Position numbers and translations under genes: made by a program. The notes beneath the pieces were generated by a model, which saw only the letters and a program-made list of their open reading frames with translations, had not been told where the DNA came from and searched no databases. Shown piece by piece: positions 13,405 through 28,365 of a stretch of DNA of 64,000 nt. Numbering within the stretch: position 1 is the first letter of the stretch; the number at the start of each line of letters is the position of its first letter. The DNA is from a virus, in the IMG/VR virus record IMGVR_UViG_3300045988_160113, positions 71,791-135,790 of that record; one strand, 5' to 3'.

Positions 13405-13417
13405 GGAGGAATGAGTT

Positions 13418-13789
13418 ATGTTCAATATTGCTTATGCTAATAAAGATAAAATTCAAAATAGTATTGCTCAAGGCGTCATTCCTGCTGAAAGTTTGATTAT
13501 TACCAATAATGAGGAAGGTAAGGCTGAACTCAGTTACTATGATGAAAATGGCAATTTAAAGAGTATTGTTAAGAAAACTCAGTTTGAAAGTGAAGCAGAA
13601 GCTCGTCTTTGGACTGCTAAATATAATTATACTGGTGAGAATATTAGTGTCTACGATGCTAAAAGCGGCCAATGGAATAGTTATATTGTTAGTGTTGGTG
13701 GCGATATCAATAAGATTGCTAAAGCCGAAGATGTTGAGTCTTTCATGGAAGACTTGATTATTGATGGCGGCGGTGCTCCTCTAAAGTAA
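13418..13789 (+). CDS. Hypothetical structural protein
   Basis: ORF track; RBS aaggagg. Confidence 0.5.
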   Translation: MFNIAYANKDKIQNSIAQGVIPAESLIITNNEEGKAELSYYDENGNLKSIVKKTQFESEAEARLWTAKYNYTGENISVYDAKSGQWNSYIVSVGGDINKIAKAEDVESFMEDLIIDGGGAPLK

Positions 13790-13805
13790 AGGAGGAGTGA
13801 ATATT

Positions 13806-14321
13806 GTGGCAAAATTAATCAATACTACTATCAAACTGAGAAGGGATAATGATTATAACTACAGTAAAGTAGCAGATAGTTTTATCCCCATGAAAGGCGA
13901 GCCAGTACTTGTAGATACTGAACAATATGGACTTAGATTCAAAATTGGTGACGGTGTCACTTCTTATGGTGCGCTTGCTTATGCTGATGATAATAATAAT
14001 GTAGTTTTACTTGGTTATTATCTGAATAGTAAATTTTATATTGATAGCACTTATACAGTTGAATTAGAAAAAAATGAAAATAAACTGTATATTGATAAGA
14101 ATACTTATACAGTATATATTTGGGATAAAGAGAATTATATTCCACTTAGTCCCGAAGCTACTGAAACTGTTGCGGGCATGATGAAACTTTATCAAACTTC
14201 TGGTAATAATACTGATGGTACTATGAGCCAGAAAGCTATTACTGAAGGCGTAAATGCTATCAAATTTGAATTAGATGGGCAAGATAAAGAGTGTCTTGTT
14301 CTTGACCTCCCTTGGGACTAA
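13806..14321 (+). CDS. Receptor-binding protein with Mtd_N-like N-terminal motif
   Basis: Start moved to GTG 13806 to match paralogues (MAKLINTTIKLRR...GEPVLVDTEQYGLRFKIGDGVTSYGALAY). Confidence 0.55.
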   Translation: MAKLINTTIKLRRDNDYNYSKVADSFIPMKGEPVLVDTEQYGLRFKIGDGVTSYGALAYADDNNNVVLLGYYLNSKFYIDSTYTVELEKNENKLYIDKNTYTVYIWDKENYIPLSPEATETVAGMMKLYQTSGNNTDGTMSQKAITEGVNAIKFELDGQDKECLVLDLPWD

Positions 14322-14384
14322 GGGAGTAAATTGATACAAATATGGAAAACCACATTGTAAATAAAATTGAAAGGAGATTTTATT

Positions 14385-16055
14385 ATGGCTGATATTTCTA
14401 AAATCAAGCTTGCTAACGGCACAACTGTTACTTTGAAAGATGTTCAAGGTCGCACTGATATGACTACTCTTCTTGGTAAACATGCTCTTGAATCTCTTGG
14501 TGCTGCCGCTTGGAAGGCAGTTGCCACTGAAATTTCTGGTGAAGGCCTTGTTGATGCTTCTGTTGTTAAGGCCTATGTTGATTCTCAAGTTGGGCAAATT
14601 CATAGTTTTGATGTTGTAATTGATGCCGATGGTGGAGCTACTGGTCCTTCTGTGGCTGCTTCTAAAGACACTATGTATAAGATTTACATGGTTGCTGATG
14701 CTCAAGCTTCTGCTGGTACTTATATTGAGTGGATTACTATTCGTTCTGGGGTTAAAGACCCTTATACCTATGCTTGGGAAAAAATTGGTTCCACCAAGAC
14801 TGACCTTAGTGGTTATATTTCTAATACTATTACCATTGCTGGTATTCGACTTAACAGAGATATTTCTGTCTCTGACCTTCAGAAAGCTCTTACTCTTGGT
14901 TCTATGGCCTATGCTGATAAAGCTTCTGGTTCTGGCTCCGTTGAGACTGTTGATAGTATTACCATGAAAGAAGTCACTGTTGCTGGTAATGCTGCTGTTA
15001 CTTTCAAGGCTGCTGATGCTACTCTCACTAAGGCTAATTATACCCCTGCTGGTAAGGTTACTGGTTCTGCCATTTCTGGAGGTTCTATTGCTGTTACTTT
15101 GAAGGATTCTGCTACTAAGACTGCGGCCACTCTTAGCACCTCTGAGTTCACTCCTGCTGGTACTATCGCCGCCAAGGAGGGTGGTTCCTTCTCTGCTTTG
15201 AAGTCTGCCGCTTTCGGCGCTTCTGAAGATGGTGTTCAGATTGAGGGTACTGTCAGTGCTCCTGCAATTTCTCTTACCGCTGCTGACAAGACTTTTGCTA
15301 CTGGTTTGACTGGTGGTAGTAAGGCTTCCTTTACTGAGGGCGCTTTTACTCCTGCCGCAATTCAGGATGGTTTTTATACTGCTGGTAAGGCCGCTACTTG
15401 GACTGGTGCTGATTATACCGCTCCCAGTATGGGTGAGGCTTCCAAAGCAAAGTTTGCTTCTGAGGGTATTGTCGCCAGTCTTGATGCTGAAGATGCTGAA
15501 TGCCTAGTATTTACCACTGCTGGTACTGCTGATGCTGTTACTGCTCAGGGCGCCTTCAATGCTGGTAATGTTAACTTTGGTACTTTCAATGGTGGTTCTG
15601 CTACCGTTATCGATACTACTAAGTTCTCTGGTGGTTCTAAGGATGCTGATACTTTCGTTGCTAATGAACTTCAGACTGCTACTACTGGCAAGGTAAGTGA
15701 AGTTTCTGCCGCCGCTCTTGCTAATGCTCCTGTATTCACCGGTGAGAAGTATGCTATTGCTACTACTACTGATACCGCTCTCAAGGATGTCGCCTTTACT
15801 GCTACCAATAGTGCTACTATTGTTGATAAAGTTGAGTATGTCAAGCCTGAAATTGATGCTGCTACCTTTACTGGTACTGCTGCTACTCTTGGCTTTACTG
15901 GTACTGAGGTTGAGAATGCTCTTGTTACTAGCGTTAGTTATGATAAGGCCGATACCATTGCCGCATTTAGTGTTGCTGTTACTCCTGAGACCGATATTAT
16001 CAAGAAGACTGCTAAAACTGTTGAGGTTGAAGTTTCTCCTGTCGCTAAGCAGTAA
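14385..16055 (+). CDS. A/T/G/S-rich fibrous structural protein
   Basis: Start at MADISKIKLANGTTVTLKD after aaaggag. Low-complexity body. Confidence 0.6.
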   Translation: MADISKIKLANGTTVTLKDVQGRTDMTTLLGKHALESLGAAAWKAVATEISGEGLVDASVVKAYVDSQVGQIHSFDVVIDADGGATGPSVAASKDTMYKIYMVADAQASAGTYIEWITIRSGVKDPYTYAWEKIGSTKTDLSGYISNTITIAGIRLNRDISVSDLQKALTLGSMAYADKASGSGSVETVDSITMKEVTVAGNAAVTFKAADATLTKANYTPAGKVTGSAISGGSIAVTLKDSATKTAATLSTSEFTPAGTIAAKEGGSFSALKSAAFGASEDGVQIEGTVSAPAISLTAADKTFATGLTGGSKASFTEGAFTPAAIQDGFYTAGKAATWTGADYTAPSMGEASKAKFASEGIVASLDAEDAECLVFTTAGTADAVTAQGAFNAGNVNFGTFNGGSATVIDTTKFSGGSKDADTFVANELQTATTGKVSEVSAAALANAPVFTGEKYAIATTTDTALKDVAFTATNSATIVDKVEYVKPEIDAATFTGTAATLGFTGTEVENALVTSVSYDKADTIAAFSVAVTPETDIIKKTAKTVEVEVSPVAKQ

Positions 16056-16058
16056 TAA

Positions 16059-16163
16059 ATGGCTGAAATTTCTAAAATCAAATTGCCAGACAATACCGAG
16101 TACAACCTAAAGGACGAAGAACTTCGTACTATGTTGGAAATTTTGTTGGGTAATAAAAATTGA
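16059..16163 (+). CDS. 34-aa ORF duplicating the fibre N-terminal module
   Basis: MAEISKIKLPDNTEYNLKDEELRTMLEILLGNKN. No clear RBS. May be a cassette remnant. Confidence 0.3.
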   Translation: MAEISKIKLPDNTEYNLKDEELRTMLEILLGNKN

Positions 16164-16172
16164 TAGAGATAT

Positions 16173-16202
16173 GGAACGGGGAGACTCCGGTTTCTCCGTT
16201 CC
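16173..16202 (+). terminator. Hairpin, terminator candidate
   Basis: ggaacgg(gg)aga...tctccgttcc. Confidence 0.4.
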
Positions 16203-16242
16203 TACTTTAGAATAGAAACAAAGTGCTTCAAGGAGGGGTAAA

Positions 16243-16431
16243 ATGGCAAAGATAAAGACAATCAAACTTCCCAATGATACCTCTGCGCGCGAAGTATATG
16301 ATGTTGGCGCAGTCAGATTTGATGAAAAAGGTAATCTGACAGAAGCACAAAAAACTATCGCGCGTGCTAATGTTGGCGTAGAAGAGTATACTGCCGACGA
16401 GATTGAGAATATTTGGAATAGTACAACGTAA
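16243..16431 (+). CDS. Mini fibre-module protein (62 aa)
   Basis: N-terminal MAKIKTIKLPNDT, QKTIARANVG motif and C-terminal EEYTADEIENIWNS. Confidence 0.5.
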   Translation: MAKIKTIKLPNDTSAREVYDVGAVRFDEKGNLTEAQKTIARANVGVEEYTADEIENIWNSTT

Positions 16432-16439
16432 GTAAATAG

Positions 16440-16461
16440 GGTGGGAGTAAATACTCCCACC
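16440..16461 (+). terminator. Rho-independent terminator candidate
   Basis: ggtgggagt-aaat-actcccacc. Confidence 0.5.
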
Positions 16462-16472
16462 TTAGTAAAAAT

Positions 16473-16501
16473 TTGACGTGGAAAGTAATTTGTGGTATAA
16501 T
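16473..16501 (+). promoter_or_regulatory. Extended -10 sigma70 promoter upstream of the DGR target operon
   Basis: TTGACG-17 bp-(TGg)TATAAT. About 260 nt of leader precede 16766. Confidence 0.6.
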
Positions 16502-16765
16502 TATTATAGTGGATAAGAAATCTGCCTGGCTTGGAATGATAGTCAGTATAGCCCTTGAAAGTGATAGGGAGAAGAAGTTGACGGACGCTGAGCCAGTGGG
16601 TGAAGTGTCTGTTTTTTTATGTATATATTATATTCTGCGCACTTGTGAATTTTTTATAAAAGAAGATAGTGATTTTTATAGATTTTATACAAGGCCACGC
16701 GTAAGGATAGAAAGAATATAAATTGGCCTGCGCGAAAAGTGTAAGAGATAATAAAGGAGGTACAA

Positions 16766-16978
16766 ATGAGTAAGAATGTGAATGCTTGTAAAAGCGACAA
16801 TACTGAAAACTGGAATAAGGCAGTAAATTTTGTGCCTTCAAAGGGAGAAGTAATTATTTACTCTGATGTTGAACAGATGAAAGTCGGTGATGGAGTAAAT
16901 AGTGTTGTCAATTTGCCATTTAAGGACAGAGAATATGAGGATAAGGAAATTGAAGAGATTTATAATTCTGTGAGGTGA
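16766..16978 (+). CDS. Small fibre-adaptor protein
   Basis: FVPSKGEVIIYSDVEQMKVGDGVNSVVNLPF (Mtd_N-like) and C-terminal EYEDKEIEEIYNS. Confidence 0.5.
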   Translation: MSKNVNACKSDNTENWNKAVNFVPSKGEVIIYSDVEQMKVGDGVNSVVNLPFKDREYEDKEIEEIYNSVR

Positions 16979-16982
16979 AAGT

Positions 16983-17732
16983 ATGGGAATTATTATGTTG
17001 AATAACAAGGTTCTGGTGAATCAGAATAAGATTGCGATGTATATACCTCCTTTTGAACCACCTGCTAAAGGTTCGATTGTAAAGATGAATTTGGATGGGA
17101 CTGAAAGACAGTATAGAGTATTGAGTGTAAATGGAAACGTTTGTAAAGTATTAGGAATGTGGGATGACTTTGCAAGCAAATATAATGAAACAAGTACAAC
17201 TACTACTTTCGGAAGCACTACTGCTCAGAAATACGAAGGTTCTACTTTAGATACCTATTTAAATACTACTTGGTATAATACATTAACTAGTGCTGCTAAG
17301 GCGGCTATTGTACCTGAGAATGTAGTACAGTATTGTTATAAATATTATGATGAACCAAATACTCCAAATACACCTACATATACATATCAATATCAGCATA
17401 ACTGGTCTAATTCAGATTATGAAAATGCCGATAATGTAGGCAATGTAACTGTTGGAGAACGTAACGTGTTTGCTTTAGATTTGAAGGATATTTTTGATTA
17501 TATGGGAAAAGTGTGTATTACATCTGATGAACTAATGATTATGTTTTGGAATAGTACAACTAAAGTATCTAAATATCTATGGTTGCGGTCCTCTCTTGCC
17601 GACTATTCTTACGGTGCGTGGATTGTGTCCGGTGACACTGGTAATTTGAGCTACACTGGTGTTGCTAATAGTTGTGTCGTGCGGCCCGCGCTTAATCTAG
17701 ATATGTCCAAAATCCAGTACACCCTCGTGTGA
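16983..17732 (+). CDS. DGR variable (target) protein, WLRS...VRPA C-type-lectin-like C-terminus
   Basis: VR lies in frame in the last 50 codons: LRSSLADYSYGAWIVSGDTGNLSYTGVANSCVVRPA. Confidence 0.85.
   Translation: MGIIMLNNKVLVNQNKIAMYIPPFEPPAKGSIVKMNLDGTERQYRVLSVNGNVCKVLGMWDDFASKYNETSTTTTFGSTTAQKYEGSTLDTYLNTTWYNTLTSAAKAAIVPENVVQYCYKYYDEPNTPNTPTYTYQYQHNWSNSDYENADNVGNVTVGERNVFALDLKDIFDYMGKVCITSDELMIMFWNSTTKVSKYLWLRSSLADYSYGAWIVSGDTGNLSYTGVANSCVVRPALNLDMSKIQYTLV
17583..17690 (+). repeat. DGR variable repeat (VR)
   Basis: 108 bp aligned to TR without gaps. 20 mismatches, every one opposite a TR adenine. Confidence 0.9.
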
Positions 17733-17739
17733 GCGGGTA

Positions 17740-17765
17740 GCTGGAGGCGCCTCAGCGCCGACAGC
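17740..17765 (+). promoter_or_regulatory. GC-rich hairpin 50 bp downstream of VR
   Basis: gctg-ga-ggcgc-ctca-gcgcc-ga-cagc. Confidence 0.5.
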
Positions 17766-17828
17766 GTCCGCGGAGGAAAATATTTTCTAAAAATTATCAA
17801 ATAACATTTTATAAGGAGATTTTATTCA

Positions 17829-18203
17829 ATGGCTGAATTCAATCTTATCAATCGTGCAGAAAATATGGTTGACTATTTATTAACAATTACAGATAAAGCA
17901 CCTAAAAAACTTCGCTCAGATATTATCCCAGAACTTCGTAGAGCAAGTTTCAAATGTATTCAAGCAATCATTAAAGCTAATAATTGTCCACTTGACAAAA
18001 CTCAACCTTATTATACTGAACTTAGAAAACAATACCAACTTGAAACTAAAAGTTTTCTTCAAACAATTAGTGCTTATTCTGAGATTTGTATGAAGCATAA
18101 CTACATTACTAAGAAACAATTCGATGTACTAAACGACCATATTTTCAAATGTCAAGATACCCTTATAAAATGGATGACTTCAGATGAAAATCGTTTGAAG
18201 TAA
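17829..18203 (+). CDS. avd: Accessory variability determinant (Avd, four-helix-bundle family)
   Basis: 124 aa, helical. Carries ...TDKAPKKLRSDIIPELRR...AIIKAN. Sits between target and TR. Confidence 0.75.
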   Translation: MAEFNLINRAENMVDYLLTITDKAPKKLRSDIIPELRRASFKCIQAIIKANNCPLDKTQPYYTELRKQYQLETKSFLQTISAYSEICMKHNYITKKQFDVLNDHIFKCQDTLIKWMTSDENRLK

Positions 18204-18215
18204 CAGGTATATAAC

Positions 18216-18323
18216 TTGCGGTCCTCTAATGCCGACAATTCTAACAATGCGTGGAATGTGAACGGTAACAATGGTAATTTGAACAACAATGATGTTACTA
18301 ATAGTAATGTCGTGCGGCCCGCG
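18216..18323 (+). repeat. DGR template repeat (TR)
   Basis: 32 adenines. Reads as AAT/AAC-rich codons (N at the variable positions). Shares the 3' GTCGTGCGGCCCGCG with VR. Confidence 0.9.
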
Positions 18324-18470
18324 ATTAGGAAATAAAACAAAGATTTGTTTATAGTAACATGGGTTCTATACAATATCTTTTTTCTAAGGAGTTATATCCC
18401 TTCTGTAAAAAGAAAAATATTACTTGTGTATGATTATATCGTAACTATGTAATCTGCACTTCTTAGGAGG

Positions 18471-19403
18471 TTGCACAAGTTGTATAAAGAAATTTTGTGT
18501 AATTTTGATAATATTTATAAAGCTTATAAAATAGCTCATAGAGGAAAAACAGATGATAAAGAAGTAATTGAGTTTGATAAAGATAAGATATATAATTTGA
18601 AAAAATTACAAGAAAAACTATTGAATAAACAATGGGATGAAATATTTACCTATTATAGGTTTGTAATTACCGACCCGAAGAAAAGAACTGTTGATGCTTT
18701 ACATTTTGAAGGTAGAATAGTTCAACACGTTCTTTGTGATTTGATATTGAGACCTTACTTTGAAAGAAGATTGATAAAGGAAAATGCGGCTTGTAGAATA
18801 AATAAAGGAACTGAGTACGCAGTGAATTTATTGAAAAAAGGTATTATTGAATATTATAAGAAAAATGATGACGGTTATGTTCTTCAAGCCGATGTTCATA
18901 AATATTTTCCAAGTATTGATAGAAAGAAATTGAAGGAGATAATTGATTATCCAAATAAAGAGATTTTAGAATTGATTCATTGGATTATTGATTGCGCGCC
19001 TGGCAATGGTATTCCTATTGGTAATCAGTCTTCACAATGGTTTGCTTTATATTATTTGGATAAAATTGATAGAATTATCAAAGAGAAGTATAGATGTAAG
19101 ATTTATGTCAGATATATGGATGATTTGATAGTTATAGATAAAAGTAAAGATAAACTAAAAAGAATTTTAGGTGATATTATACGAATCGGCCGAGAATTCG
19201 GATTGGAATTCAATGGAAAGACGCAAATATTCCCGCTAAGAAAAGGAATTTGTTTTTTGAGTTGGAAGTTCATTAGAAAAGAAAATATAATAAAACTGTT
19301 GAATCCAAGAAAGAAGTCAGGGAAAATAAAGAAGATAAAAGAAATTTTCAATGAAGGACCTGATAAGTTTGGGAGCGTTTTCAGTCTATGCGCGCCTACT
19401 TAA
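18471..19403 (+). CDS. DGR reverse transcriptase
   Basis: IPIGNQSSQWFALYYL (the SQ hallmark) and YVRYMDDLIVI (YMDD). TTG start after aggagg. Confidence 0.9.
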   Translation: MHKLYKEILCNFDNIYKAYKIAHRGKTDDKEVIEFDKDKIYNLKKLQEKLLNKQWDEIFTYYRFVITDPKKRTVDALHFEGRIVQHVLCDLILRPYFERRLIKENAACRINKGTEYAVNLLKKGIIEYYKKNDDGYVLQADVHKYFPSIDRKKLKEIIDYPNKEILELIHWIIDCAPGNGIPIGNQSSQWFALYYLDKIDRIIKEKYRCKIYVRYMDDLIVIDKSKDKLKRILGDIIRIGREFGLEFNGKTQIFPLRKGICFLSWKFIRKENIIKLLNPRKKSGKIKKIKEIFNEGPDKFGSVFSLCAPT

Positions 19404-19473
19404 GATTAGGAAACACTTACTATTTTAGAAAGAAAAGACTGATATATAATTATATATAAAGGAGGTCACCTAT

Positions 19474-20292
19474 ATGAAATATGTTGGCGAAAATGCCCTC
19501 AAAAAATGGACTTCATTAGTCAAGTCCGACATAAAGAAAAAACTCGACAAAAACCAAGGCACTGCTAATTCTGGCAAAATTCTTGGTGTCAATGCGACTG
19601 GTGAAGTTGCACCTACTGATACTGAGGTTGCTACTCTGGTGGACGTCCCCAATGGGATTGTAAAGGGAGATGGGAGTACACTGAGTGCGGCAGTAGCAGG
19701 GACGGACTATATGGCTCCAGTTACCGGTGGTTCTTCCGGTCAAGTGCTGACGAAAACCGCCGATGGGCAGGAGTGGGCAGACGCGGCGGGGGGCGATGTG
19801 TTCTGGATTCACGCGACGTTGAGCGGGGCTACCGTTACCGCAGACAAAACCCCCAGCGAAGTCAAAGAAGCAATGGTAGCTGGGAAATTATGCCTTTTGG
19901 ATATTGGTTTTCCATATCCAACATTGGTTGGAGGCGATGTGCGGAATGTGTCGGGTATTCCTCAAAGCATAATATTTACAGCAGTTAAAGAGAAAAGTAA
20001 GGATTCAGAAGCAGGAACAGTCTACTCAGTGACATGCAGTTTTACAGTCGATGCATGGCAGGCTCTCACAAAAACCATTATCCCAAGAATACCTATACCG
20101 AATAGCTCCAACGAGGGCAAATTTGTAAAATCGATCTATGATGATGGTGACGAGGCGTATTATGCACGCTGGCAACCCATCGCCCCCTCCGACATCGGCG
20201 CTATCGCAAGCGGCAACATCGTCAAGCAGACGCTTGTGAACGTTGAGACCACGCCGACCGAGAACTACGCCATCAACTGGCTGTTCGGCTAA
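19474..20292 (+). CDS. Tail-fibre protein, chimeric (AT-rich 5' end, GC-rich remainder)
   Basis: N-terminus ...GIVKGDGSTLSAAVAGTDYMAP. Composition switches near 19640. Confidence 0.6.
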   Translation: MKYVGENALKKWTSLVKSDIKKKLDKNQGTANSGKILGVNATGEVAPTDTEVATLVDVPNGIVKGDGSTLSAAVAGTDYMAPVTGGSSGQVLTKTADGQEWADAAGGDVFWIHATLSGATVTADKTPSEVKEAMVAGKLCLLDIGFPYPTLVGGDVRNVSGIPQSIIFTAVKEKSKDSEAGTVYSVTCSFTVDAWQALTKTIIPRIPIPNSSNEGKFVKSIYDDGDEAYYARWQPIAPSDIGAIASGNIVKQTLVNVETTPTENYAINWLFG

Positions 20293-20302
20293 GGAGGCGC
20301 GC

Positions 20303-21433
20303 ATGGCTACATTTACTGTAGAGATAACGCCAGATTCTAGCAACGGTACTATCGCCCACGCAGTCGGAAAGTTTTCCGGAGGGTCAAGCAGCTATAAAGG
20401 TCGGCGACGCATGAACGTTACCGTCAGCGGCGTCGGGACATTTTCTGCGTTATCGCCGGAGACAAGCGGAGGCGAAAACACTTTTTCTCTCGACATCACG
20501 GGGCTGACGCCGGGGACAACGTACAACTGGAGCGCGTCACTCTACTACAAACATACGTCCGGGGGTTGGGTGACAGCAGGATCGCAGTACGATAAATCCG
20601 GAAGCTTTACGACGAAAAGTAAAACCCCTACATTACCAAAAACGCTCGTCAACGGCACTGCTTACGACGTTAAGGGCGGGAAGTGCCTCGTCAACGGCAC
20701 GGTGTACAATATCCTCAAGGGCAGGACGCTTATCGGCGGGACGGGGTATGATATTGCGCTGTCGAGCGCGGGGACAAAGATTGAGACGCTGAACGTGGGA
20801 CAATCAGTATATGCAAATGTTGGTGGCGTGCGCAAGGAATTCATCGTTGTCCATCAGGGCAAGCCAAGTTCTTTGTACGATGATTCCTGCAATGGCACTT
20901 GGCTGTTGATGAAGGATATCTACGAGAATAGGCAGTGGAACAGTTCCGATTCCAACGTATATGAAACCAGCACGGTCAACACTTACCTTAACGGGCCGTT
21001 TCTTGGGCTGTTTGACTCTAACATTCAAGGGATTATCAAACAGGTCAAGATACCGTACCGCAAAGGTGGCGGCAGCGGCACTGACCAGTCCGGCGCAAAT
21101 GGCCTGTCCGCGAAGATATTTTTGTTGTCTGGTTACGAAGTAGGCTGGACGACCAGCAACCACGAGTTGTTCCCACAGGATGGCGCGAAGCTGTCCTACT
21201 TTGAGTCTGGGACCGGCACGTCCGCCAACAAGAAGCGCATTGCGTACCTGGACGGCTCGGTCGCCATCTGGTGGCTCCGCTCCCCGAACATCGGCTACAC
21301 CGACGGGGTATGGCGCATCAGCGCCGGTGGCAGCTACGACTACAACAACGCATCCCGCTCGTACGGCATCCGCCCCTGCATCATTCTCCCGTCCACTACC
21401 CTCGTGGATGACGAATTCAATCTTACCACTTAA
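20303..21433 (+). CDS. RBP paralogue of the DGR target (WWLRSP...GIRPC C-terminus)
   Basis: Start at taaGGAGGcgcgcATG. ...TVNTYLNGPF...IFLLSGYEVG...IWWLRSPNIGYTDGVWRISAGGSYDYNNASRSYGIRPC. Confidence 0.6.
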   Translation: MATFTVEITPDSSNGTIAHAVGKFSGGSSSYKGRRRMNVTVSGVGTFSALSPETSGGENTFSLDITGLTPGTTYNWSASLYYKHTSGGWVTAGSQYDKSGSFTTKSKTPTLPKTLVNGTAYDVKGGKCLVNGTVYNILKGRTLIGGTGYDIALSSAGTKIETLNVGQSVYANVGGVRKEFIVVHQGKPSSLYDDSCNGTWLLMKDIYENRQWNSSDSNVYETSTVNTYLNGPFLGLFDSNIQGIIKQVKIPYRKGGGSGTDQSGANGLSAKIFLLSGYEVGWTTSNHELFPQDGAKLSYFESGTGTSANKKRIAYLDGSVAIWWLRSPNIGYTDGVWRISAGGSYDYNNASRSYGIRPCIILPSTTLVDDEFNLTT

Positions 21434-21445
21434 AGGAGTGAAACT

Positions 21446-22246
21446 ATGTCAACTTACATCAAAGTCAACAACACCGAATACCCCGCGACCATCACGGGCG
21501 AGCACAAAGACCGCACGTGGGGTGAGCGCGAGGTCAAGAACATCCGCCTGACGATGACCGCCACCGAGGCGGCGGCGCTGCTACCCGACAACACGCCGTG
21601 GAGCATCGTACAGCGCGACACCGTACCTAAGTACGATGAGGACGGCAAGCCCACGGGCGAGACCGAGGAGGTCGTCAACGAGTGGGACAACAGCGCGTAC
21701 AGCCTGAGCGGGGCGATCACCGACCACCGCGACGGCACGGTCACGGTCAAGATGGGAAAGCCCACGGAGACCGAGAGCGCCAAAGCGACCGTCACCGCCC
21801 TTGCTGGCGAGCCGGTCACATACGCCCGCGCGGTGGAGCTACGCCCCATTATCGAGCAGACAGCGGTCAGCCTGAGCGACGGCGAGGCGGCAAGCGTGCC
21901 GGAACTCATCACAGCATGGGCGTACCCCGTTGATTACGCTGAGGGCGACCGCAGGAGCTACGGCGGTAAGGTGCACAAGTGCCGTCAGGCACATACCTCG
22001 CAGGCCGACTGGACGCCGGACAAGACGCCCGCGTTGTGGGCGGTCATCGACGCCGAGCACGCGGGCACGCAGGCAGACCCCATCCCGGCAGCGCGCGGCA
22101 TGGAGTACGAGTACGGCAAGTACTACCTCGACGGCGAGGACGGCAAGGTGTACCTCTGCGAGCGCACGGGCGAGCAGGCGGGCGGCAAGATCACGCTGCA
22201 ATACCTGCCGCACGAGCTGGTGGGCAACTATTTCAAGGCGGCCTAA
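21446..22246 (+). CDS. Protein with CBM5/12-like carbohydrate-binding repeats
   Basis: YGGKVHKCRQAHTSQADWTPDKTPALWAVI plus a second degenerate copy. Confidence 0.55.
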   Translation: MSTYIKVNNTEYPATITGEHKDRTWGEREVKNIRLTMTATEAAALLPDNTPWSIVQRDTVPKYDEDGKPTGETEEVVNEWDNSAYSLSGAITDHRDGTVTVKMGKPTETESAKATVTALAGEPVTYARAVELRPIIEQTAVSLSDGEAASVPELITAWAYPVDYAEGDRRSYGGKVHKCRQAHTSQADWTPDKTPALWAVIDAEHAGTQADPIPAARGMEYEYGKYYLDGEDGKVYLCERTGEQAGGKITLQYLPHELVGNYFKAA

Positions 22247-22377
22247 GGTCGCAGAAAGGGAGCGAACCAATGGGAGATTTGGCAAGGGTCGTATCGGTGT
22301 GCTCGGAGATCACGGTTATCCTCAGTGCGTAAAGTAAGAGTCCAACAAAATTTCAACAAAAATTTTTCTCTCGAAAT

Positions 22378-22406
22378 TTGACTTTTCTTCAAACTTCAAC
22401 TATAAT
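22378..22406 (+). promoter_or_regulatory. sigma70-type promoter
   Basis: TTGACT-17 bp-TATAAT. Confidence 0.6.
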
Positions 22407-22502
22407 ATAATTAGAGAGTGGGAAGAGAACACTCTCCTACCTTATTTACTTATTTTTCTTTCTCTTCCCACTCTACTACATTATACTATGGAGGAATTTA
22501 CC

Positions 22503-22856
22503 ATGTCTGAATCCGCTCATCATGCTCCTGCGCCCGTTCCGCAACCGATTCCAGTTTATAAAACCGTCGATATTTCTACAGTCAAACGACAAGGTGATAC
22601 TTGGTTACTAAACTCTCAACTCACCTATACCGATTCTCAAAACTTCTCATCTGTCCATTTTATCTCAAATGGTCAATCATTTACCGCTATTTCTCATTAC
22701 CCAAAAGACAATTCCGAATGTCTTTATTATGACCTCATCAAAGTCAATAACGGCTCTCCATTTTGGCTTGATGATAACTATCGAGTAATATCACTTACTC
22801 ATAAACCAGATAAGAAATTACTCGCCTGGCTTACTGCTAATGGCGTAAAGATATAG
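22503..22856 (+). CDS. Hypothetical protein
   Basis: Start at ATG 22503 after ggagga. Confidence 0.45.
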   Translation: MSESAHHAPAPVPQPIPVYKTVDISTVKRQGDTWLLNSQLTYTDSQNFSSVHFISNGQSFTAISHYPKDNSECLYYDLIKVNNGSPFWLDDNYRVISLTHKPDKKLLAWLTANGVKI

Positions 22857-22864
22857 ATTTTTAG

Positions 22865-22889
22865 GAGAGCGGAAGCTCTTCTTTTTTTA
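22865..22889 (+). terminator. Rho-independent terminator
   Basis: agagc-ggaa-gctct followed by T8. Confidence 0.55.
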
Positions 22890-22902
22890 TAGGAGGAATA
22901 TA

Positions 22903-23694
22903 ATGACAGAACAAAACCTGCGTAGGCTAGTAGTAGACACATTCTGTTCCTATAATGGTGCCAAACAGAATTCTACTAAACACAAAAACCTTATTGACAC
23001 ATACAACACAATTATCCCTCTTCCTCGTGGAGTGAAGATGACTTACTCCATGTCTTGGTGTGCGGCAACAGTAAGCGCGATTTCACAGAAGCTTGGACTG
23101 ACAGATATTCTTCTTCCTGAGTGTTCCTGCTCCAAAATGATTGAAGCGTATCAAAAAATTGGCCGCTGGGAAGAGCGTGATAACTATGTTCCTCAGATTG
23201 GCGACTTAGTTATGTATGACTGGCAAGATGGAAGTGATTATGTTAGTGTAGATAATACCGGTGCACCCGACCATGTTGGTATGGTGGTTGATGTGAATAA
23301 GGCTTCGAAAATGATGAGAATTATCGAAGGGAATAAAGGAACTCCATCAACTTGTGGATATCGATCACTACAAATCAATGGACGATTTATTAGAGGATTC
23401 TGTTTACCAGATTATGCAAAGGCTGCTAAGACATACAAGACAAGTTCCACTACAAAAATTGAATATTGTAGCGTAAACCTACCAGTTCTCACTCAAGGCG
23501 CGACTGGACAAACTGTAGAGACACTACAAGTTATACTGCGCGCGCTGGGATATAAGATTGATTTAGATGGTTCTTTCGGTCCTGCGACGGCGAATGCACT
23601 CAGTCAGTTCCAGAAAGGGAGTGGCCTAGCGGTTGATAAGTCCTGTGGACCTCTTACATGGACCGCTTTGATTACAGGAGGAGAATTGAAATGA
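22903..23694 (+). CDS. Endolysin: CHAP/NlpC-P60 domain + PG_binding_1
   Basis: SWCAATVS (Cys), DHVGMV (His). C-terminus DGSFGPATANALSQFQKGSGLAVDKSCGPLTW. Confidence 0.75.
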   Translation: MTEQNLRRLVVDTFCSYNGAKQNSTKHKNLIDTYNTIIPLPRGVKMTYSMSWCAATVSAISQKLGLTDILLPECSCSKMIEAYQKIGRWEERDNYVPQIGDLVMYDWQDGSDYVSVDNTGAPDHVGMVVDVNKASKMMRIIEGNKGTPSTCGYRSLQINGRFIRGFCLPDYAKAAKTYKTSSTTKIEYCSVNLPVLTQGATGQTVETLQVILRALGYKIDLDGSFGPATANALSQFQKGSGLAVDKSCGPLTWTALITGGELK

Positions 23695-24677
23695 AATACT
23701 ATGTATCTAATGGTATCAAAATTATTGAATGCGCGCCCAGTGAATTCAAAGTGGTCATGGTGAATCAACACAAGAAAAATGTGCGCAAGTCCACTTTTGT
23801 AAATGCGAATTTCTTTGCGGGTGGGCAGAAACTCAACAATGAAGTATTCACGTTACCAGTAAATCACCTTATTTGTGATTATGAAGCAAGTGGAAACTCG
23901 GAGCGGATTCGTAATGAGCAGCGTGGCACTTTCAAAGGTAATAAATATTACTATGATTCTTACTCTTACGGCGCACCCACTGACCAATTCTATCATAAAA
24001 CCTTGACTGTCTTGGCTATCAAGAACAAAAAGCCAAGCATCTTTGATATGGCTGTATTGGATAAGTCATATGAATATCTTGTTGCTGGTATTCCAGTAAT
24101 GAAGAATGGCAAGGATGTAAAGTGGAAGACTTATGTTTCTAAGCAAGGTTGGACTGGTGGTGAGCTATATGGAACCTATCACATTTTTGCTGGTTTGAAG
24201 AATGGAACTGACACTATTTACCTAATGAGTTGGAAAACTACTTCTTCAAATTTGATTTATAGTGGTGAAGCATTTAGAAGGTTCTCAGCGATGGGTTTTA
24301 GGGATGTCATCAAGCTTGATGGCGGTGGCAGTGAGATTATGAGGTATAACAATGTTACCAAGCACGCGACTGCTGAAAATCGGCAAATCAGCGCCATTAT
24401 TGAGGTAGTTGGTAAAGAAGTTGCTACAACTCCAAATCGTCCACAGAGCAAGGCTAATCCATACGCAGTCCCCACCAAGGCTCTCAAACGTGGCTCGACT
24501 GGTAATGGAGTTCGCTGGATGCAGTTCCAACTAAATAAAGCTGGATTTACTTGTTCTATTGATGGCTCTTTCGGCCCAGCAACTGAGAAGGCACTCAAGT
24601 CCTATCAATCTGCGCGCAGTCTCGAAGTTGATGGAAGCTGTGGTCCTGCTACTCGCGCGGCATTGAAGAAGGAATAA
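23691..24677 (+). CDS. Second cell-wall hydrolase (phosphodiester-glycosidase-like) + PG_binding_1
   Basis: ATGA overlap. KLDGGGSE motif. C-terminus DGSFGPATEKALKSYQSARSLEVDGSCGPATR. Confidence 0.55.
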   Translation: MKYYVSNGIKIIECAPSEFKVVMVNQHKKNVRKSTFVNANFFAGGQKLNNEVFTLPVNHLICDYEASGNSERIRNEQRGTFKGNKYYYDSYSYGAPTDQFYHKTLTVLAIKNKKPSIFDMAVLDKSYEYLVAGIPVMKNGKDVKWKTYVSKQGWTGGELYGTYHIFAGLKNGTDTIYLMSWKTTSSNLIYSGEAFRRFSAMGFRDVIKLDGGGSEIMRYNNVTKHATAENRQISAIIEVVGKEVATTPNRPQSKANPYAVPTKALKRGSTGNGVRWMQFQLNKAGFTCSIDGSFGPATEKALKSYQSARSLEVDGSCGPATRAALKKE

Positions 24678-24678
24678 T

Positions 24679-24707
24679 TTGACTTTTGAATTCTTTTATG
24701 ATATAAT
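24679..24707 (+). promoter_or_regulatory. sigma70-type promoter
   Basis: TTGACT-17 bp-TATAAT. Confidence 0.6.
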
Positions 24708-24752
24708 ATATATAAAGGTGGATGACACCAATAAATATGAGAGGATTATAAA

Positions 24753-24971
24753 ATGGTAAAGCTAAGCGTAACAGAAAAGTATCGTGCAGAGACTCGTGAG
24801 GAAGCAGAAGATTTCATTCGTGCACAGCGTGAGAATGGAGCTAAGGAAGGGTATGATATTACTAAAGCTGAGTATACCCATAAAGACAAGAAAAAGGGTG
24901 GGGAGATTATTGATTCGTGTGAAGTAGTCACCATCACTAAGGTCTATTGTGGTATGTGGGACATGGAGTAA
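24753..24971 (+). CDS. Hypothetical protein
   Basis: ORF track. Confidence 0.45.
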   Translation: MVKLSVTEKYRAETREEAEDFIRAQRENGAKEGYDITKAEYTHKDKKKGGEIIDSCEVVTITKVYCGMWDME

Positions 24972-24973
24972 CT

Positions 24974-25141
24974 ATGGAAAAAACCTATACTTGCTACACT
25001 TGCCTCAATTTTGATGAACTTTGCTCCAAACTCGAAAATGGTGAGCGGCCTCCAAAAATTTGTAAAAAGTGCGCATGGCATGAGCAGGGAGATGAACTCC
25101 CTCTCAAGAAGCGCCCTAATTATATTTCAATGAATCTATAA
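24974..25141 (+). CDS. Small Cys-containing protein
   Basis: Start at MEKTYTCYTC. Confidence 0.4.
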   Translation: MEKTYTCYTCLNFDELCSKLENGERPPKICKKCAWHEQGDELPLKKRPNYISMNL

Positions 25142-25153
25142 GGAGAATCAACT

Positions 25154-25567
25154 ATGGAAATTTTTCAACAGTGTCTAACCGAACTACTCCGTGTAGTAGT
25201 CCTTGTTATCATCGCCGGTTTTGGTGTTCTTGCCCGTATGTATCTTGTTCCTCTACTCAAGTCTTGGGTTGAAAAGGCTAAGTCTGCCGCAGATAAAGCT
25301 GGTATTGACCTAACTGCCGAACAGGTTGAACAGGCAAAGAAGATTATTGCTGCGATGGTTGCTTCGGCATATCGTTTAAAGCTCGGTGGTAAGATTGAAG
25401 ATGCTAAGGCTTATGTCAATGAGCTGGCAAAGACTGAACTTGCTAAACTTGGCATTGAACTGAGTGATGAAATGATTGATGAGTTTCGTCGTGCGGCGCT
25501 TGGTGAGCTTGAGCGCACTATGGCCGAGTGGAAGACTCTTACTGAAATTGAGGGAGAGACAGAGTAA
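25154..25567 (+). CDS. Holin candidate (LL-H-like: one N-terminal TM + long helical tail)
   Basis: LLRVVVLVIIAGFGVLARMYLVPLL. Lies adjacent to the lysins. Confidence 0.45.
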   Translation: MEIFQQCLTELLRVVVLVIIAGFGVLARMYLVPLLKSWVEKAKSAADKAGIDLTAEQVEQAKKIIAAMVASAYRLKLGGKIEDAKAYVNELAKTELAKLGIELSDEMIDEFRRAALGELERTMAEWKTLTEIEGETE

Positions 25568-25585
25568 TCTGTCTCTCTTTTTTTT
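25554..25585 (+). terminator. Rho-independent terminator ending the late region
   Basis: gagagacag-agtaat-ctgtctctc followed by T8. Confidence 0.75.
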
Positions 25586-25590
25586 GAAAT

Positions 25591-25619
25591 TTGATTTTTG
25601 AAGAAAAATTTTGTATAAT
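25591..25619 (+). promoter_or_regulatory. sigma70-type promoter with conserved leader
   Basis: TTGATT-17 bp-TATAAT, then ATAGAAAGTGAGGAAAG. Confidence 0.65.
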
Positions 25620-25643
25620 GATTATAGAAAGTGAGGAAAGATT

Positions 25644-25868
25644 ATGAAAGGTATTGAGGAAATTTTATACCATTTCAAGGCTTGGTTTAGAAGTCTTGGC
25701 TTATCAGTATATAATGTAAAGTTATGGCGGGAAGAAGAAACTAAAAATGTATATGTAGGAAGTCAGTTTTTCTTTAGATATAAAGCAGCAAAATTTTGGA
25801 AAGATAGCTGGGATGAAGATAAAGAAATTACTGCTACTATCACTAAAGAAACCGTATTCTTATTTTGA
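25644..25868 (+). CDS. Hypothetical protein
   Basis: ORF track. Confidence 0.45.
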   Translation: MKGIEEILYHFKAWFRSLGLSVYNVKLWREEETKNVYVGSQFFFRYKAAKFWKDSWDEDKEITATITKETVFLF

Positions 25869-25995
25869 TTATGAAAGTAGAAAAAGGAACTATTGCTAAA
25901 CTTCGTCGTTGCGCGCGGATTGAACCATTGTTTCCAGAGTTGAAATGGTGGCAGAAAATTTATTTGAGAATCTATGAAAGGGTACGGGGTGTATT

Positions 25996-26145
25996 ATGGA
26001 AGATAAGAAGGAAGATAGGAATTCGACCTCGAAGATGACTCCTGAACAGTTAGAAAAATGGCTTGCTCTGCGTAAGAAGTGTCATGTGCATAAGAGCAAG
26101 AAAGACTATACTCGAAAGGAGAAGCATAAGAAACAGTATGAATAA
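25996..26145 (+). CDS. Small basic ORF (49 aa)
   Basis: Own translation MEDKKEDRNSTSKMTPEQLEKWLALRKKCHVHKSKK.... ATGAATAA overlap with the next gene. Confidence 0.3.
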   Translation: MEDKKEDRNSTSKMTPEQLEKWLALRKKCHVHKSKKDYTRKEKHKKQYE

Positions 26146-26347
26146 AAATATTATATTTGGATTCAAACTTGCTTTGGCAGTATTTTGCTCGGTATTTAGC
26201 TTGATTTTACCTTATGTATTTCTTTTTTATATTGTTACTCATCCTGTTTGGTGGATTTGGCTGTTAGGATTTCCTACTCTTGCCGCGCTAATTGCTCTTG
26301 AAGTATGTATTTGTGAATATATATGGGAGGAATGGATTGATGATTGA
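26138..26347 (+). CDS. Small membrane protein
   Basis: Start MNKNIIFGF; two TM segments. Confidence 0.45.
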   Translation: MNKNIIFGFKLALAVFCSVFSLILPYVFLFYIVTHPVWWIWLLGFPTLAALIALEVCICEYIWEEWIDD

Positions 26348-26936
26348 TAATTTTGAGAATATAAAGAATATTCCAGTTACAAATATGACTATTGGAGATA
26401 TTTTGAAATATTTTGAAGTTGTTACTGAACGTGAACACAATAGTGAAGAAGAAGTAAAGAGAAGTATGTCTGAGGTTGCTAATCGTTTTATGGTAGAAGC
26501 GATGTATAAATATTATAATCCTAATGAATATCAAAGCGAGACATCAAAGGTTTCTATGCGCAAGGATGGCGAAAACTGGGAAAAAGGGGGAATAATTAGT
26601 GGTTATTTTTATCCACCCAATTCACGAGCGGCTATTGTCAGAGAATTGACAAATAAATTCAAAGATGATTTGATTCGAGGGAAAATTTTATTTTCAGAAG
26701 AGAATAAAAATTTTTTCTTCAAAACCGCAGACCATCCTACCTGTAAACTTACTCTTAGCATCGAAGATGGTAATTTAGTTATTACTTATTATATTGGTGA
26801 TACCGTTTATACCAAGAAAATTTTACCTGACTCTTCCGATTTTGTAAATAAAAGTGACGAATTTTGGAAAAAGTATGGGGAAATTATTATATCTTCGTCC
26901 AATGAGTTGGTTGCGCAAATCAATGAAGGTCATTGA
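26340..26936 (+). CDS. Hypothetical protein (paralogue A)
   Basis: PVTNMTIGDILKYFEVVTEREHNSEEEVKRSMSEVANRFMVEAMYK. Confidence 0.5.
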   Translation: MIDNFENIKNIPVTNMTIGDILKYFEVVTEREHNSEEEVKRSMSEVANRFMVEAMYKYYNPNEYQSETSKVSMRKDGENWEKGGIISGYFYPPNSRAAIVRELTNKFKDDLIRGKILFSEENKNFFFKTADHPTCKLTLSIEDGNLVITYYIGDTVYTKKILPDSSDFVNKSDEFWKKYGEIIISSSNELVAQINEGH

Positions 26937-26957
26937 CTAGGAGAAATATCCTAAAAT

Positions 26958-26986
26958 TTGATTTAGTAAGAAATATTTGCTATAAT
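26958..26986 (+). promoter_or_regulatory. sigma70-type promoter
   Basis: TTGATT-17 bp-TATAAT. Confidence 0.6.
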
Positions 26987-27040
26987 ATTTATAGAAAATT
27001 GAGACAAATTATATTTGAAAGGAGAAGTGTAAGAAAGATT

Positions 27041-27721
27041 ATGCTGAATAATGAAGATTATTCAAAGGTGTTGAAAAAGCCTATCAAAGACATGACTATT
27101 GGTGATGTAGTTGAATACTTTGATATCATCTGCGCGCGGAAACATGGCGGTGATGAAGATGTAAAGCGCACTGCTTCTGAATTGAAGGCGCGTTTTATTA
27201 TGGAAGCTCTCTATAAGAATGATGAGTTTTTTTCGAAAGAGCGGCAAGGAAATGTAATCAACGATTGGTATAATAAGACTTGTAAAGACGGTCATCTAAT
27301 ATTAGTACCTTCTTCTTATGAAATTGCCCAAGCAAGAAACTATCTTGATTCTGATTGTAGGCTGCTGTCTCCTCAACTGTTGCGAGACCGACAGAGTGCG
27401 AAGGAACTAAAGAATTTGGTTAGGGAATTTTGTGAAGATAGAGATGCTGGTAGACTTATTCACCCTAATAGTGTCTGTGCCAATCCCGTTTTTGATAGAG
27501 TAAATGGGAAAACTCGACTTATAATTTCCAAGATTGCTAATAATCAACTTTTCGTTCGAGTAATTATCAATGGTTCAGCAAGATATTTCTATGTCAATGT
27601 AAGGTTCAATAGAACACCATTTGCTTATAATTGGTGGAAGATGTATAGTCGTCGCATTACAAAGAAACTTGGGAAAATTATCGACAAACTTGAGAAAGGA
27701 GATTATAATGAACAATTTTGA
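27041..27721 (+). CDS. Hypothetical protein (paralogue B)
   Basis: PIKDMTIGDVVEYFDIICARKHGGDEDVKRTASELKARFIMEALYK. Confidence 0.5.
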   Translation: MLNNEDYSKVLKKPIKDMTIGDVVEYFDIICARKHGGDEDVKRTASELKARFIMEALYKNDEFFSKERQGNVINDWYNKTCKDGHLILVPSSYEIAQARNYLDSDCRLLSPQLLRDRQSAKELKNLVREFCEDRDAGRLIHPNSVCANPVFDRVNGKTRLIISKIANNQLFVRVIINGSARYFYVNVRFNRTPFAYNWWKMYSRRITKKLGKIIDKLEKGDYNEQF

Positions 27722-28358
27722 TGTAACCATTCTTACCCCACAGGGAGATAACTATGTAAAATTATATCCTCTTATTAATGGAGCAATACTTAAAACCAGT
27801 CAGTCTAAACCTGGCAGTTTCAAAAATATTGATATTGAACTAACCAATGAAGGCCTTGAGCAATTGCGCGTATGGCTTGATTGTTACTTCAAAGAACATG
27901 AAGAAGACGAAAAGAAACAAAAGCTAATTTCTAATCGTATGGCCACATATGAAGTATATATTGAAGGATTAGCAGATTTCAAAATTGTCAACTCCGAGAT
28001 TCCTAAAAATACCATTGAGTATTTCAATCACCTAAAAAATTATCTTGATTTTTCAGTTCTCACACCACAATTATATGCTTCTCTTCGTCATACAGTTCTT
28101 ATGGGATTTTACAAAGTAAGTGAAAAAGCAACTCATAAGCTCACTTTAGAATTTTTGATGAGTGGCAATTCAGTAAATACAATTTTGTATAAAATTGAAA
28201 GTTGCGATGACCATATTGGGAGATATGAATTTACAGACGAAGGACTCAAAATTATCCCATTGGGCACAGCTGGGCTAGCAGAAGACCTAAACTTCAAACT
28301 TTGCGCGAAAGCTATCAAAGATATTTATAATGAATTTATGGAGACTGATTATGAATAA
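27708..28358 (+). CDS. Hypothetical protein
   Basis: Start MNNFDVTIL after aaaggag. Confidence 0.5.
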   Translation: MNNFDVTILTPQGDNYVKLYPLINGAILKTSQSKPGSFKNIDIELTNEGLEQLRVWLDCYFKEHEEDEKKQKLISNRMATYEVYIEGLADFKIVNSEIPKNTIEYFNHLKNYLDFSVLTPQLYASLRHTVLMGFYKVSEKATHKLTLEFLMSGNSVNTILYKIESCDDHIGRYEFTDEGLKIIPLGTAGLAEDLNFKLCAKAIKDIYNEFMETDYE

Positions 28359-28365
28359 TCAAATT

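Follow-up and report, generated by a model that had tools for sequence, protein, structure and literature searches.

In phages, receptor-binding proteins and tail fibres are documented hotspots of module swapping and fragment shuffling (bioRxiv 10.1101/2024.10.15.618418; Smug et al. 2023, PMC10684548), and large virulent phages are known to have exchanged genes recently with temperate ones (Moura de Sousa et al. 2021, PMC8136500). One domain of host-recognition proteins, DUF6273, has been reported to be C-type-lectin-like (PMC10743442) and to act as the variable receptor-binding scaffold of tentaclins and of gut-phage targets of diversity-generating retroelements (DGRs) (PMC10743442; bioRxiv 10.1101/2024.10.15.618418). 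Here we analyse a stretch of 64,000 nucleotides of a virus genome (positions 71,791 to 135,790 of the IMG/VR record IMGVR_UViG_3300045988_160113; hereafter the window), in which a GC-rich island begins inside a fibre gene directly downstream of a DGR. Our results indicate that this island very probably serves a large AT-rich phage as its distal host-recognition cassette and was swapped in from GC-rich phages. It is a new and well-resolved case of a known type of event, the swapping of receptor-binding modules.

The locus resembles the described module-swapping hotspots in several respects: a variable cassette occupies a fixed place between conserved flanks, siblings hold alternative cargo there, crossovers fall within genes at conserved linkers, and the functions affected concern the interaction with the host. 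It differs from them in that the partners are ~20 points apart in GC content, differ threefold in the size of their genomes, share no nucleotide similarity beyond the module in the stretches compared, and left a latest event that can be resolved to crossover intervals of 18 and 14 nt. As in the gene flow between virulent and temperate phages (PMC8136500), a near-identical segment is common to a large virulent-type phage and an unrelated smaller family, one relative of the smaller family is a prophage, and presence in the same cell is implied. That study worked at the level of whole genes, with proteins at least 80% identical in isolate genomes, whereas our comparison is made at the nucleotide level, in uncultivated genomes, and between partners whose lifestyles are both predicted.

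The GC content is 0.567 between 19640 and 22335 and 0.363 in the remaining window. Segments of 2.7 kb from this remainder have a mean of 0.364 (standard deviation 0.025, maximum 0.427), which places the block at z ~8, and its GC content peaks at 0.69 in 300-nt segments (21800-22099). Maximum-likelihood change points fall at ~19585 on the left and ~22316 on the right. The shift is largest at third codon positions, whose GC content (GC3) is 0.87 in the gene of a protein with a carbohydrate-binding module (CBM) of the CBM5/12 type, 0.67 in a DUF6273 gene, and 0.81 at the C-terminus of the fibre; GC3 in the GC-rich parts of the island spans 0.60-0.87, against 0.21-0.41 in backbone genes. Amino-acid content is ruled out as the cause of the shift. 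Synonymous codon usage, scored by codon log-likelihood, is donor-like within the island and backbone-like outside. These sliding-window and codon-usage analyses bear out the first-pass annotation, made from the letters of the sequence, which had placed a jump in GC content inside the open reading frame (ORF) 19474-20292, immediately ahead of GDGSTLSAAVAGTDY (residues 66-80). The spurious overlapping ORFs that it described on both strands of the island are present, as is the AT-rich promoter that it saw just downstream (Table 1). What it lacked is a low-GC dip within the block (19859-20146, GC 0.41). RNA folding at the junctions was no better than that of shuffled sequences.

Acquired segments of atypical composition are familiar from phage genomes as the morons and mosaic modules described by Hendrix and colleagues. 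The island shares with these segments its foreign GC content and codon usage, its sharp edges, and its position between native genes. Unlike them, it is no self-contained extra gene with its own promoter and terminator (no intrinsic terminator was found on the + strand inside it); it takes the place of part of an existing structural operon, with in-frame joints within two genes.

A donor lineage of different composition, which had been postulated from the GC jump, could be identified. Relatives of the CBM protein occur at 355 loci in IMG/VR (79-96% amino-acid identity for the listed ones) and number more than 5000 in the protein database. We analysed the best 80 of the 355 IMG/VR loci, plus one further locus (L001; numbers with L are our labels for loci and contigs). 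Their median GC content is 0.587, and most of the 80 are on contigs of 40-44 kb. The order of genes in donors is tail genes, a fibre with collagen-like repeats, a DUF6273 protein, the CBM protein, small holin-like genes, and an endolysin. Both by place and by composition, the module is native to these phages, which are gut phages of 42-43 kb with 54-59% GC. In blastn searches, homology to donors covers positions 20177/20203-22264 of the window. The best single donor, L168 (ENA ERZ21647318, 42,140 bp; found again in a second sample as L169), aligns colinearly with the window from 20203 to 22264, with 95% identity. About 1.2 kb of this alignment is 99.8-100% identical. The identity is unevenly spread: 100% over 20203-20469, 43 mismatches in 20470-20723, two mismatches in 20724-21681 (99.8%, with zero from 21289 to 21681), and 82-98% over 21682-22264. 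Over the patch 20480-20720, the window agrees at 100% with a second donor, L027, and the composition of both donors is that of their family. Proteins of the same 90% cluster, encoded on contigs of 40-43 kb, show only 1-3 residue differences from the island protein in its C-terminal 226 residues. A megablast of positions 12-30 kb of the window against GenBank phages matched the island alone (MT835513) and revealed no close relative of the recipient.

The recipient appears to be a large, virulent-type, AT-rich phage. Its genome is ~136 kb long with 36% GC, and contigs carrying the same genes measure 135.5-135.9 kb. We recovered siblings through protein look-ups, which brought the AT-rich relatives to eight genomes or fragments: L159, L161, L162, L163, L164, L170, L171, and the window's own lineage. 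Searches of IMG/VR for siblings returned nothing with the reverse transcriptase (RT) protein and only distant matches with the N-terminal module of the fibre. The siblings have a common backbone on both sides, and their cassettes differ between the fibre N-terminal module and a gene of 117/122 codons. The comparison with siblings lacking this island allele, which the first-pass annotation had recommended, was thus possible and revealed sharp breakpoints. L170 and L171, both near-isogenic with the window, keep a 486-aa double-DUF6273 gene where the window has a 376-aa one, and four others (L159, L161, L162, and L164) have other cassettes. L170 shows 2 mismatches to the window in 3546 nt (16675-20220), with an identical variable region (VR) in the DGR target; past 20220, the following 70 nt contain 20 mismatches, and the downstream gene is a different one. 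L171 (a 123.8-kb contig) is 97.6% identical to the window over 9474-20300 and 98.6% over 21363-29950. Its identity falls to 71-96% over the replaced tract; within the CBM gene it is 82-96% up to 21667 and ~100% from 21668 to 22700. Flanking the replaced tract, identity to these two siblings thus reaches 99.9-100%.

The reciprocal patterns of identity to L168 and to L170 and L171 therefore indicate that the latest event replaced ~20221-21675. This tract comprises the last ~24 codons of the fibre gene, the entire DUF6273 gene, and the first ~77 codons of the CBM gene, and at its two ends the donor-type and sibling-type sequences share just 18 and 14 identical nt. The proposal of a recent swap of a host-recognition module, made initially from composition, is supported by the discovery of the donor and of the siblings. 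What needs refining is the number of events: the island did not arrive in one swap, and the latest replacement covers only ~20221-21675.

The edges of the island at 19640 and 22335 had been taken for the two ends of a single insertion. They are real as edges of composition, but both are older than the latest swap, and what they delimit is a composite of ages. On the left, the fibre gene is a mosaic of the form AT|GC|AT|GC (Table 1). Its first 55 codons (19474-19638) are 86-91% identical in nucleotides to those of five siblings, and the residues they encode presumably anchor the fibre to the virion. The N-terminal module as a whole (residues 1-104) is common to five more diverged siblings, with homology extending to 19718-19782, and all five siblings examined show a step in GC content from 0.42-0.45 (residues 1-55) to 0.54-0.59 (residues 56-104). 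Because the step near 19640 is common to diverged siblings, it is older than the recent swap; it belongs to the lineage as a whole and is no junction of that swap. The motif GDGSTLSAAVAGTDY...GQVLTKTADGQEW, which follows the step, recurs in many fibre homologues. The central part of the gene (19858-20145) has no nucleotide match in donors or siblings and no close homologue beyond the strain cluster, outside which the best protein matches reach 54-58%. The last 29 residues (IASGNIVKQTLV..TPTENYAINW..) are conserved at 79-100% amino-acid identity across dozens of otherwise different fibres of donors and siblings, including the collagen-repeat fibre of the donors. The stretch encoding this peptide may act as the left homology arm of the exchanges, and the peptide probably has a structural role as well.

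On the right, homology to the common donor type runs past the stop codon of the CBM gene and the next ribosome-binding site and ends at 22264. The following positions (22270-22329) are 91-96% identical in nucleotides to the first codons of a 101-aa gene that lies directly downstream of the CBM gene in another donor variant (L087, L093, L146, and L149). The window retains 19 codons of this gene before the AT-rich backbone resumes at ~22330, and from 22336 on the backbone is 93-95% identical to that of siblings. L159, L164, and L171 also have the stub and the switch point, partly decayed in L164 and identical in L171; the backbones of the siblings having this junction are 91-95% identical. Because L159, L164, and L171 have the stub and junction in common, the first capture of the cassette predates the split of the sampled siblings.

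Other siblings preserve traces of further events. L164 carries its own GC-rich allele, ~83% identical to that of the window and ~82% to donors, L159 keeps only the C-terminus of the CBM gene and the stub, and L161 holds a short donor-like remnant. L159 also has a second GC-rich patch (its positions 3890-4300, GC 0.65-0.75) in the gene of a 1073-aa tail protein, the homologue of window 8981-11554, and the nucleotide identity of this patch to fibre genes of the GC-rich donors is 83-90%. The L164 allele, the second patch of L159, and the L161 remnant therefore indicate that the GC-rich and AT-rich lineages exchanged DNA several times.

Table 1. Positions of the island's components, of the neighbouring DGR, and of other features in the window.
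Feature	Position	Strand	Basis or remarks
Fibre gene, codons 1-55	19474-19638	+	AT-rich, GC3 0.35, backbone-like codon usage; lineage-specific N-terminal part
Fibre gene, codons 56-128	19639-19857	+	older GC-rich tract, GC3 0.60, with GDGSTLSAAVAGTDY...GQVLTKTADGQEW linker motif
Fibre gene, codons 129-224	19858-20145	+	central domain, AT-type, GC 0.41, GC3 0.33
Fibre gene, codons 225-272	20146-20292	+	GC-rich C-terminus, GC3 0.81
Left crossover interval	20203-20220	+	L170 equals window to 20220; L168 equals window from 20203
Most recently replaced tract	20221-21675	+	~1.46 kb; identity to L168/L027 against divergence from L171
376-aa DUF6273 protein gene	20303-21433	+	Pfam DUF6273, E 3.6e-36, residues 197-364; PHROG 10993
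266-aa CBM5/12 protein gene	21446-22246	+	Pfam CBM_5_12, E 2.2e-12, residues 157-198
Right crossover interval	21668-21681	+	inside CBM gene, codons 75-79; switch of identity between L168 and L171
20-codon stub (MGDLARVVSVCSEITVILSA*)	22271-22333	+	truncated 5' end of the 101-aa gene downstream of the CBM gene in one donor variant
Promoter-like site, start of AT-rich backbone	22378-22406	+	TTGACT-17-TATAAT, 11/12
DGR target gene (DUF6273, C-type-lectin-like)	16983-17732	+	Pfam DUF6273, E 1.9e-13; outside the island
VR of DGR target	17583-17694		repeat between VR and template repeat
DGR block	17829-19403	+	AT-rich, just upstream of the island
Avd-like gene	17829-18203	+	Pfam bAvd
DGR template repeat	18216-18327	+	
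Reverse transcriptase gene	18471-19403	+	Pfam RVT_1
Homing-endonuclease-type genes	625-1719 (-), 30559-31347, 37240-38067, 52334-52942, 53322-53963		

These observations are best explained by a scenario with two phases. The cassette, which here comprises the fibre tip, the 376-aa DUF6273 adhesin-type protein, and the CBM5/12 protein, was captured from the abundant 42-43 kb gut phage family before the siblings split. It lies between the DGR and the lysis genes, a place whose counterpart in donors has the order fibre, DUF6273, CBM, holin-like gene, endolysin. Such an old capture explains both the stub at the right junction (~22330) and the common GC step in the N-terminal module of the fibre. 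Afterwards, homologous recombination with phages of the donor family overwrote the cassette repeatedly, the stretch encoding the 29-residue fibre peptide together with the ribosome-binding site probably serving as left homology arm and the conserved parts of the CBM gene as right one. The most recent of these events replaced the 486-aa double-DUF6273 allele by the 376-aa one. Each exchange would have taken place inside a cell holding both genomes, following either co-infection or the infection of a lysogen.

Several observations weigh against this scenario. The tract as a whole is matched by none of the sampled donors alone: L168 is patchy in 20470-20723 and diverges again after 21682. No recombinase gene was found among the window proteins scanned, nor any lifestyle marker in L168. 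The fibre protein has no match in Pfam, PHROGs, or the sequences of the PDB, and its role is deduced from its position and its homologues: it sits among tail genes of the Mtd_N type and has a repeat motif in common with longer fibre-like proteins. Finally, the continuity of the junctions is known from assemblies only, and one SPAdes assembly breaks within the common tract (21177-21231).

Among the alternatives, the one that survives best concerns the immediate source of the DNA: the same transfer may have drawn on a prophage, or a prophage remnant, in the chromosome of the host during lytic infection. We regard this as a serious possibility, to which we give a little less than even weight. Virulent phages are known to acquire DNA from prophages of the lysogen they infect (PMC8136500), and we found a prophage bearing the module integrated in an Oscillospiraceae contig. 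Yet this integrated example matches at only 86-93%, and the best donors, L168 and L027, are contigs of 42-43 kb without bacterial flank. The two routes, prophage and co-infecting phage, leave sequences that are indistinguishable.

A transfer in the opposite direction, in which the GC-rich phages received a cassette that belonged originally to the AT-rich lineage, is very improbable. Identity by itself gives no direction, and several AT-rich siblings do have versions of the cassette. However, both its composition and its codon usage, with GC3 up to 0.87, fit the GC-rich family and not the AT-rich backbone, it holds a conserved place in hundreds of GC-rich genomes (the 355 IMG/VR loci), and among the AT-rich siblings it is variable, partly deleted, or absent. 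In addition, it is the AT-rich genomes that keep a truncated stub of the donor's next gene.

The first-pass annotation had also considered an assembly chimera, in which reads of the AT-rich phage and of a co-occurring GC-rich phage were joined. The donor family is abundant in gut samples, and the SPAdes break mentioned above could be taken in favour of such an artefact. Nevertheless, we reject it as close to refuted and hardly credible. Positions 9474-32246 of the window are 100% identical in two assemblies of two samples, one made with MEGAHIT (ERZ19693459) and one with SPAdes (ERZ1755967), the latter of which assembles both outer junctions. Identical proteins occur on further contigs of 135,790-135,895 bp, and siblings at 7-16% divergence retain the older junctions. 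Moreover, the identities of 18 and 14 nt at the recent crossovers are far below the k-mer sizes implied for these assemblies (k119; 55-nt overlap), and therefore an assembly graph with k of at least 55 cannot cross there. The break itself consists of a 55-nt overlap of NODE_123 and NODE_538 inside a tract that is 99.8-100% identical to donors, which suggests that a donor-type phage co-occurs in the sample of ERZ1755967.

A last alternative ties the island to the neighbouring DGR. In its target gene (16983-17732), all 19 differences between VR and template repeat (TR) lie at TR adenines, as expected for a DGR target. The island DUF6273 gene is not a target of this DGR: it has no similarity to the TR or to the rest of the window that could mark a VR. 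That it is nonetheless a second target, its composition tied to retrohoming, is suggested by its position just downstream of the RT gene, by its domain family, by a C-terminus resembling a VR scaffold (WWLRS...GIRP), and by the description of DGRs with two DUF6273 targets (PMC10743442; bioRxiv 10.1101/2024.10.15.618418), but for the local TR this idea is already refuted and in general barely tenable, given that the gene lacks nucleotide similarity to TR 18216-18327, that the window has no second TR-like copy, that the stretch equivalent to a VR is not hypervariable among 22 close homologues, that the donor loci fetched have no RT, and that retrohoming changes ~100 nt and not 2.7 kb.

The surroundings of the DGR are nevertheless reminiscent of the hotspot of Toutatisvirus and nd4/nd12-like gut phages and of tentaclins (bioRxiv 10.1101/2024.10.15.618418; PMC10743442). 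In both, DUF6273 proteins adjoin an Avd-TR-RT block in a variable region, and the block is found in some relatives only, the target gene staying in place. Here, the block is present in the window, L159, L170, and L171, and absent between the target and fibre genes of L161, L162, L163, and L164, which keep the target. The island DUF6273 gene differs from that hotspot in being no DGR target and in owing its diversity to the replacement of alleles, not to retrohoming. Its product also differs from tentaclins in the order of its domains, which is opposite: the DUF6273 domain is C-terminal (197-364) and the part rich in beta-strands N-terminal. L161 has in addition an AT-rich cassette (its positions 8928-14691) that encodes a GT2 glycosyltransferase, a 573-aa protein, and two more proteins of the DUF6273 type. 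One of these two DUF6273 genes is similar to the DGR target, VR region included (80% to window 17157-17689).

The domain families of the island proteins and their position between fibre and lysis genes suggest a role in receptor binding. The 376-aa protein, presumably an adhesin, consists of an N-terminal part rich in beta-strands, a strand-rich linker, and a C-terminal DUF6273 domain, whose C-type-lectin-like scaffold is backed by the Pfam match and by a confident domain in the AlphaFold2 (AF2) model. In this model, the predicted local distance difference test (pLDDT) exceeds 90 over most of residues 160-280 and is 54-94 beyond, and the N-terminal part is modelled only with low confidence. 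Its matches in BFVD are DUF6273 proteins, and the only match in a fold search of the PDB with the DUF6273 model is the IgA peptidase of T. ramosa, the N-terminal domain of which is annotated as DUF6273. The protein had been called a paralogue of the DGR target; they do share the DUF6273 family, but at 21% identity they are only distant relatives. The second protein had been described as CBM5/12-like, which the Pfam profile confirms (47.2 bits for a cut-off of 26.2). It matches CBMs of chitin deacetylases and of chitinase A1 among PDB sequences, and its module aligns with the CBMs of 4ny2 and 1ed7, W/Y positions included. This indicates that the protein carries a bona fide CBM5/12 carbohydrate-binding module; its AF2 model is poor (pLDDT 51) and unfit for a fold search. 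A swap of the cassette would alter receptor specificity.

The identity of the host can be approached through the donors. In a scan of genome contigs with the CBM protein, the matches were mostly mis-binned phage contigs in metagenome-assembled genomes. The informative case is a prophage (L166) in a 227.7-kb gut contig with 55-60% GC, which has the fibre-CBM-holin-endolysin module at 86-90% nucleotide identity. The bacterial proteins that flank it are identical to proteins of Oscillibacter sp. or an Oscillospiraceae bacterium and cluster with those of Hominicoprocola fusiformis. The common host of the two lineages is thus probably a GC-rich member of the Oscillospiraceae, and, as recombination needs both genomes in one cell, the AT-rich phage probably has this host range. 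Two observations count against this assignment. L166 has only the fibre-CBM-lysis module in common with donors of the L168 type, their head and tail genes being different; the overlap being limited to the module, we infer the Oscillospiraceae host of the actual donor. Furthermore, the endolysin of the recipient is closest to those of Lachnospiraceae phages (45-49%), which is not decisive and points only to Clostridia.

The window encodes eight tRNA genes (in 28490-32009 and at 51777-51847): Leu-CAA, Trp-CCA, Gly-TCC, two Lys-TTT, Asn-GTT, Phe-GAA, and Ile-TAT. Most of them read A/U-rich codons (UUG, GGA, AAA, AAU, UUU, and AUA), whose frequency in the phage is 2-9 times that in an Oscillospiraceae proxy. 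This set is compatible with an Oscillospiraceae host without being specific to it, as any AT-rich phage would fit.

Together, these data hint that an AT-rich phage infects a GC-rich host. Leaning slightly to the doubtful side, we propose as a tentative extension that the ~136-kb lineage infects Oscillospiraceae of ~57-60% GC and diversifies its host recognition in two tiers, by point mutagenesis of one C-type-lectin-like protein through the DGR and by repeated wholesale replacement of the adjacent C-type-lectin/CBM cassette. If so, prophages of the same host, or phages co-infecting it, would supply the replacement alleles, host prediction based on composition would be off by ~20 GC points, and a common cassette would provide a direct host assignment for an uncultivated large gut phage.

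The record of this exchange is unusually clean: the donor, the recipient, a near-isogenic sibling with the other allele, and both crossovers have all been sampled. It is made distinctive by the 20-point gap in GC content, the near-100% identity of the tract, the very short identities at the crossovers, the layered history, and the adjacency to a DGR. It suggests that two lineages otherwise without common content (36% GC and ~136 kb; 54-59% GC and 42-43 kb) meet in one cell and exchange DNA repeatedly, and it provides a hypothesis, the Oscillospiraceae, for the host of an uncultivated large phage. It also cautions against host predictions based on GC content or k-mers, and against dismissing such contigs as chimeras. 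Cassette swapping beside a DGR within one locus should be useful for asking how two modes of host-range change share the work.

Downstream of the promoter-like site come the 122-aa gene and two endolysin genes (22903-24677, from PHROGs), and elsewhere the window encodes DNA and RNA ligases, RNase H, PhoH, and a Clp protease. Five genes are of the homing-endonuclease type, four GIY-YIG and one HNH (Table 1). Across 98% of its length, a 642-aa protein (32066-33994) is 35% identical to one of the hypothetical proteins of phAss-1 (OQ749652), a gut phage of 135,976 bp from a clade that reads TAG as glutamine. This link prompted us to look for stop-codon recoding, of which a stop-codon test gave no signal in the window.

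Other minor features are non-coding or repeated. A region of ~1.3 kb (50490-51780, GC raised to 0.46-0.54), which ends at the tRNA-Lys gene at 51777-51847, has no convincing ORF on the + strand. It has no match in Rfam and folds only weakly better than shuffled sequences (z -2.1; 1 of 20 as good); a large non-coding RNA and a decayed gene are both conceivable. A RAGATH-33 motif at 35396-35523 (+) scores 129.9 bits (E 5e-27), above the Rfam gathering threshold. Finally, a direct repeat of 23 nt occurs at 14385-14407 and 16059-16081, with 96% identity between its copies. The upstream one (ATGGCTGATATTTCTAAAATCAA, encoding MADISKI) is located near the beginning of the gene for a 562-aa protein rich in Ala and Thr, 7 codons past the TTG start, and the other begins right after the stop codon of the same gene; the repeat may have been left by a duplication or may mark a swap point.

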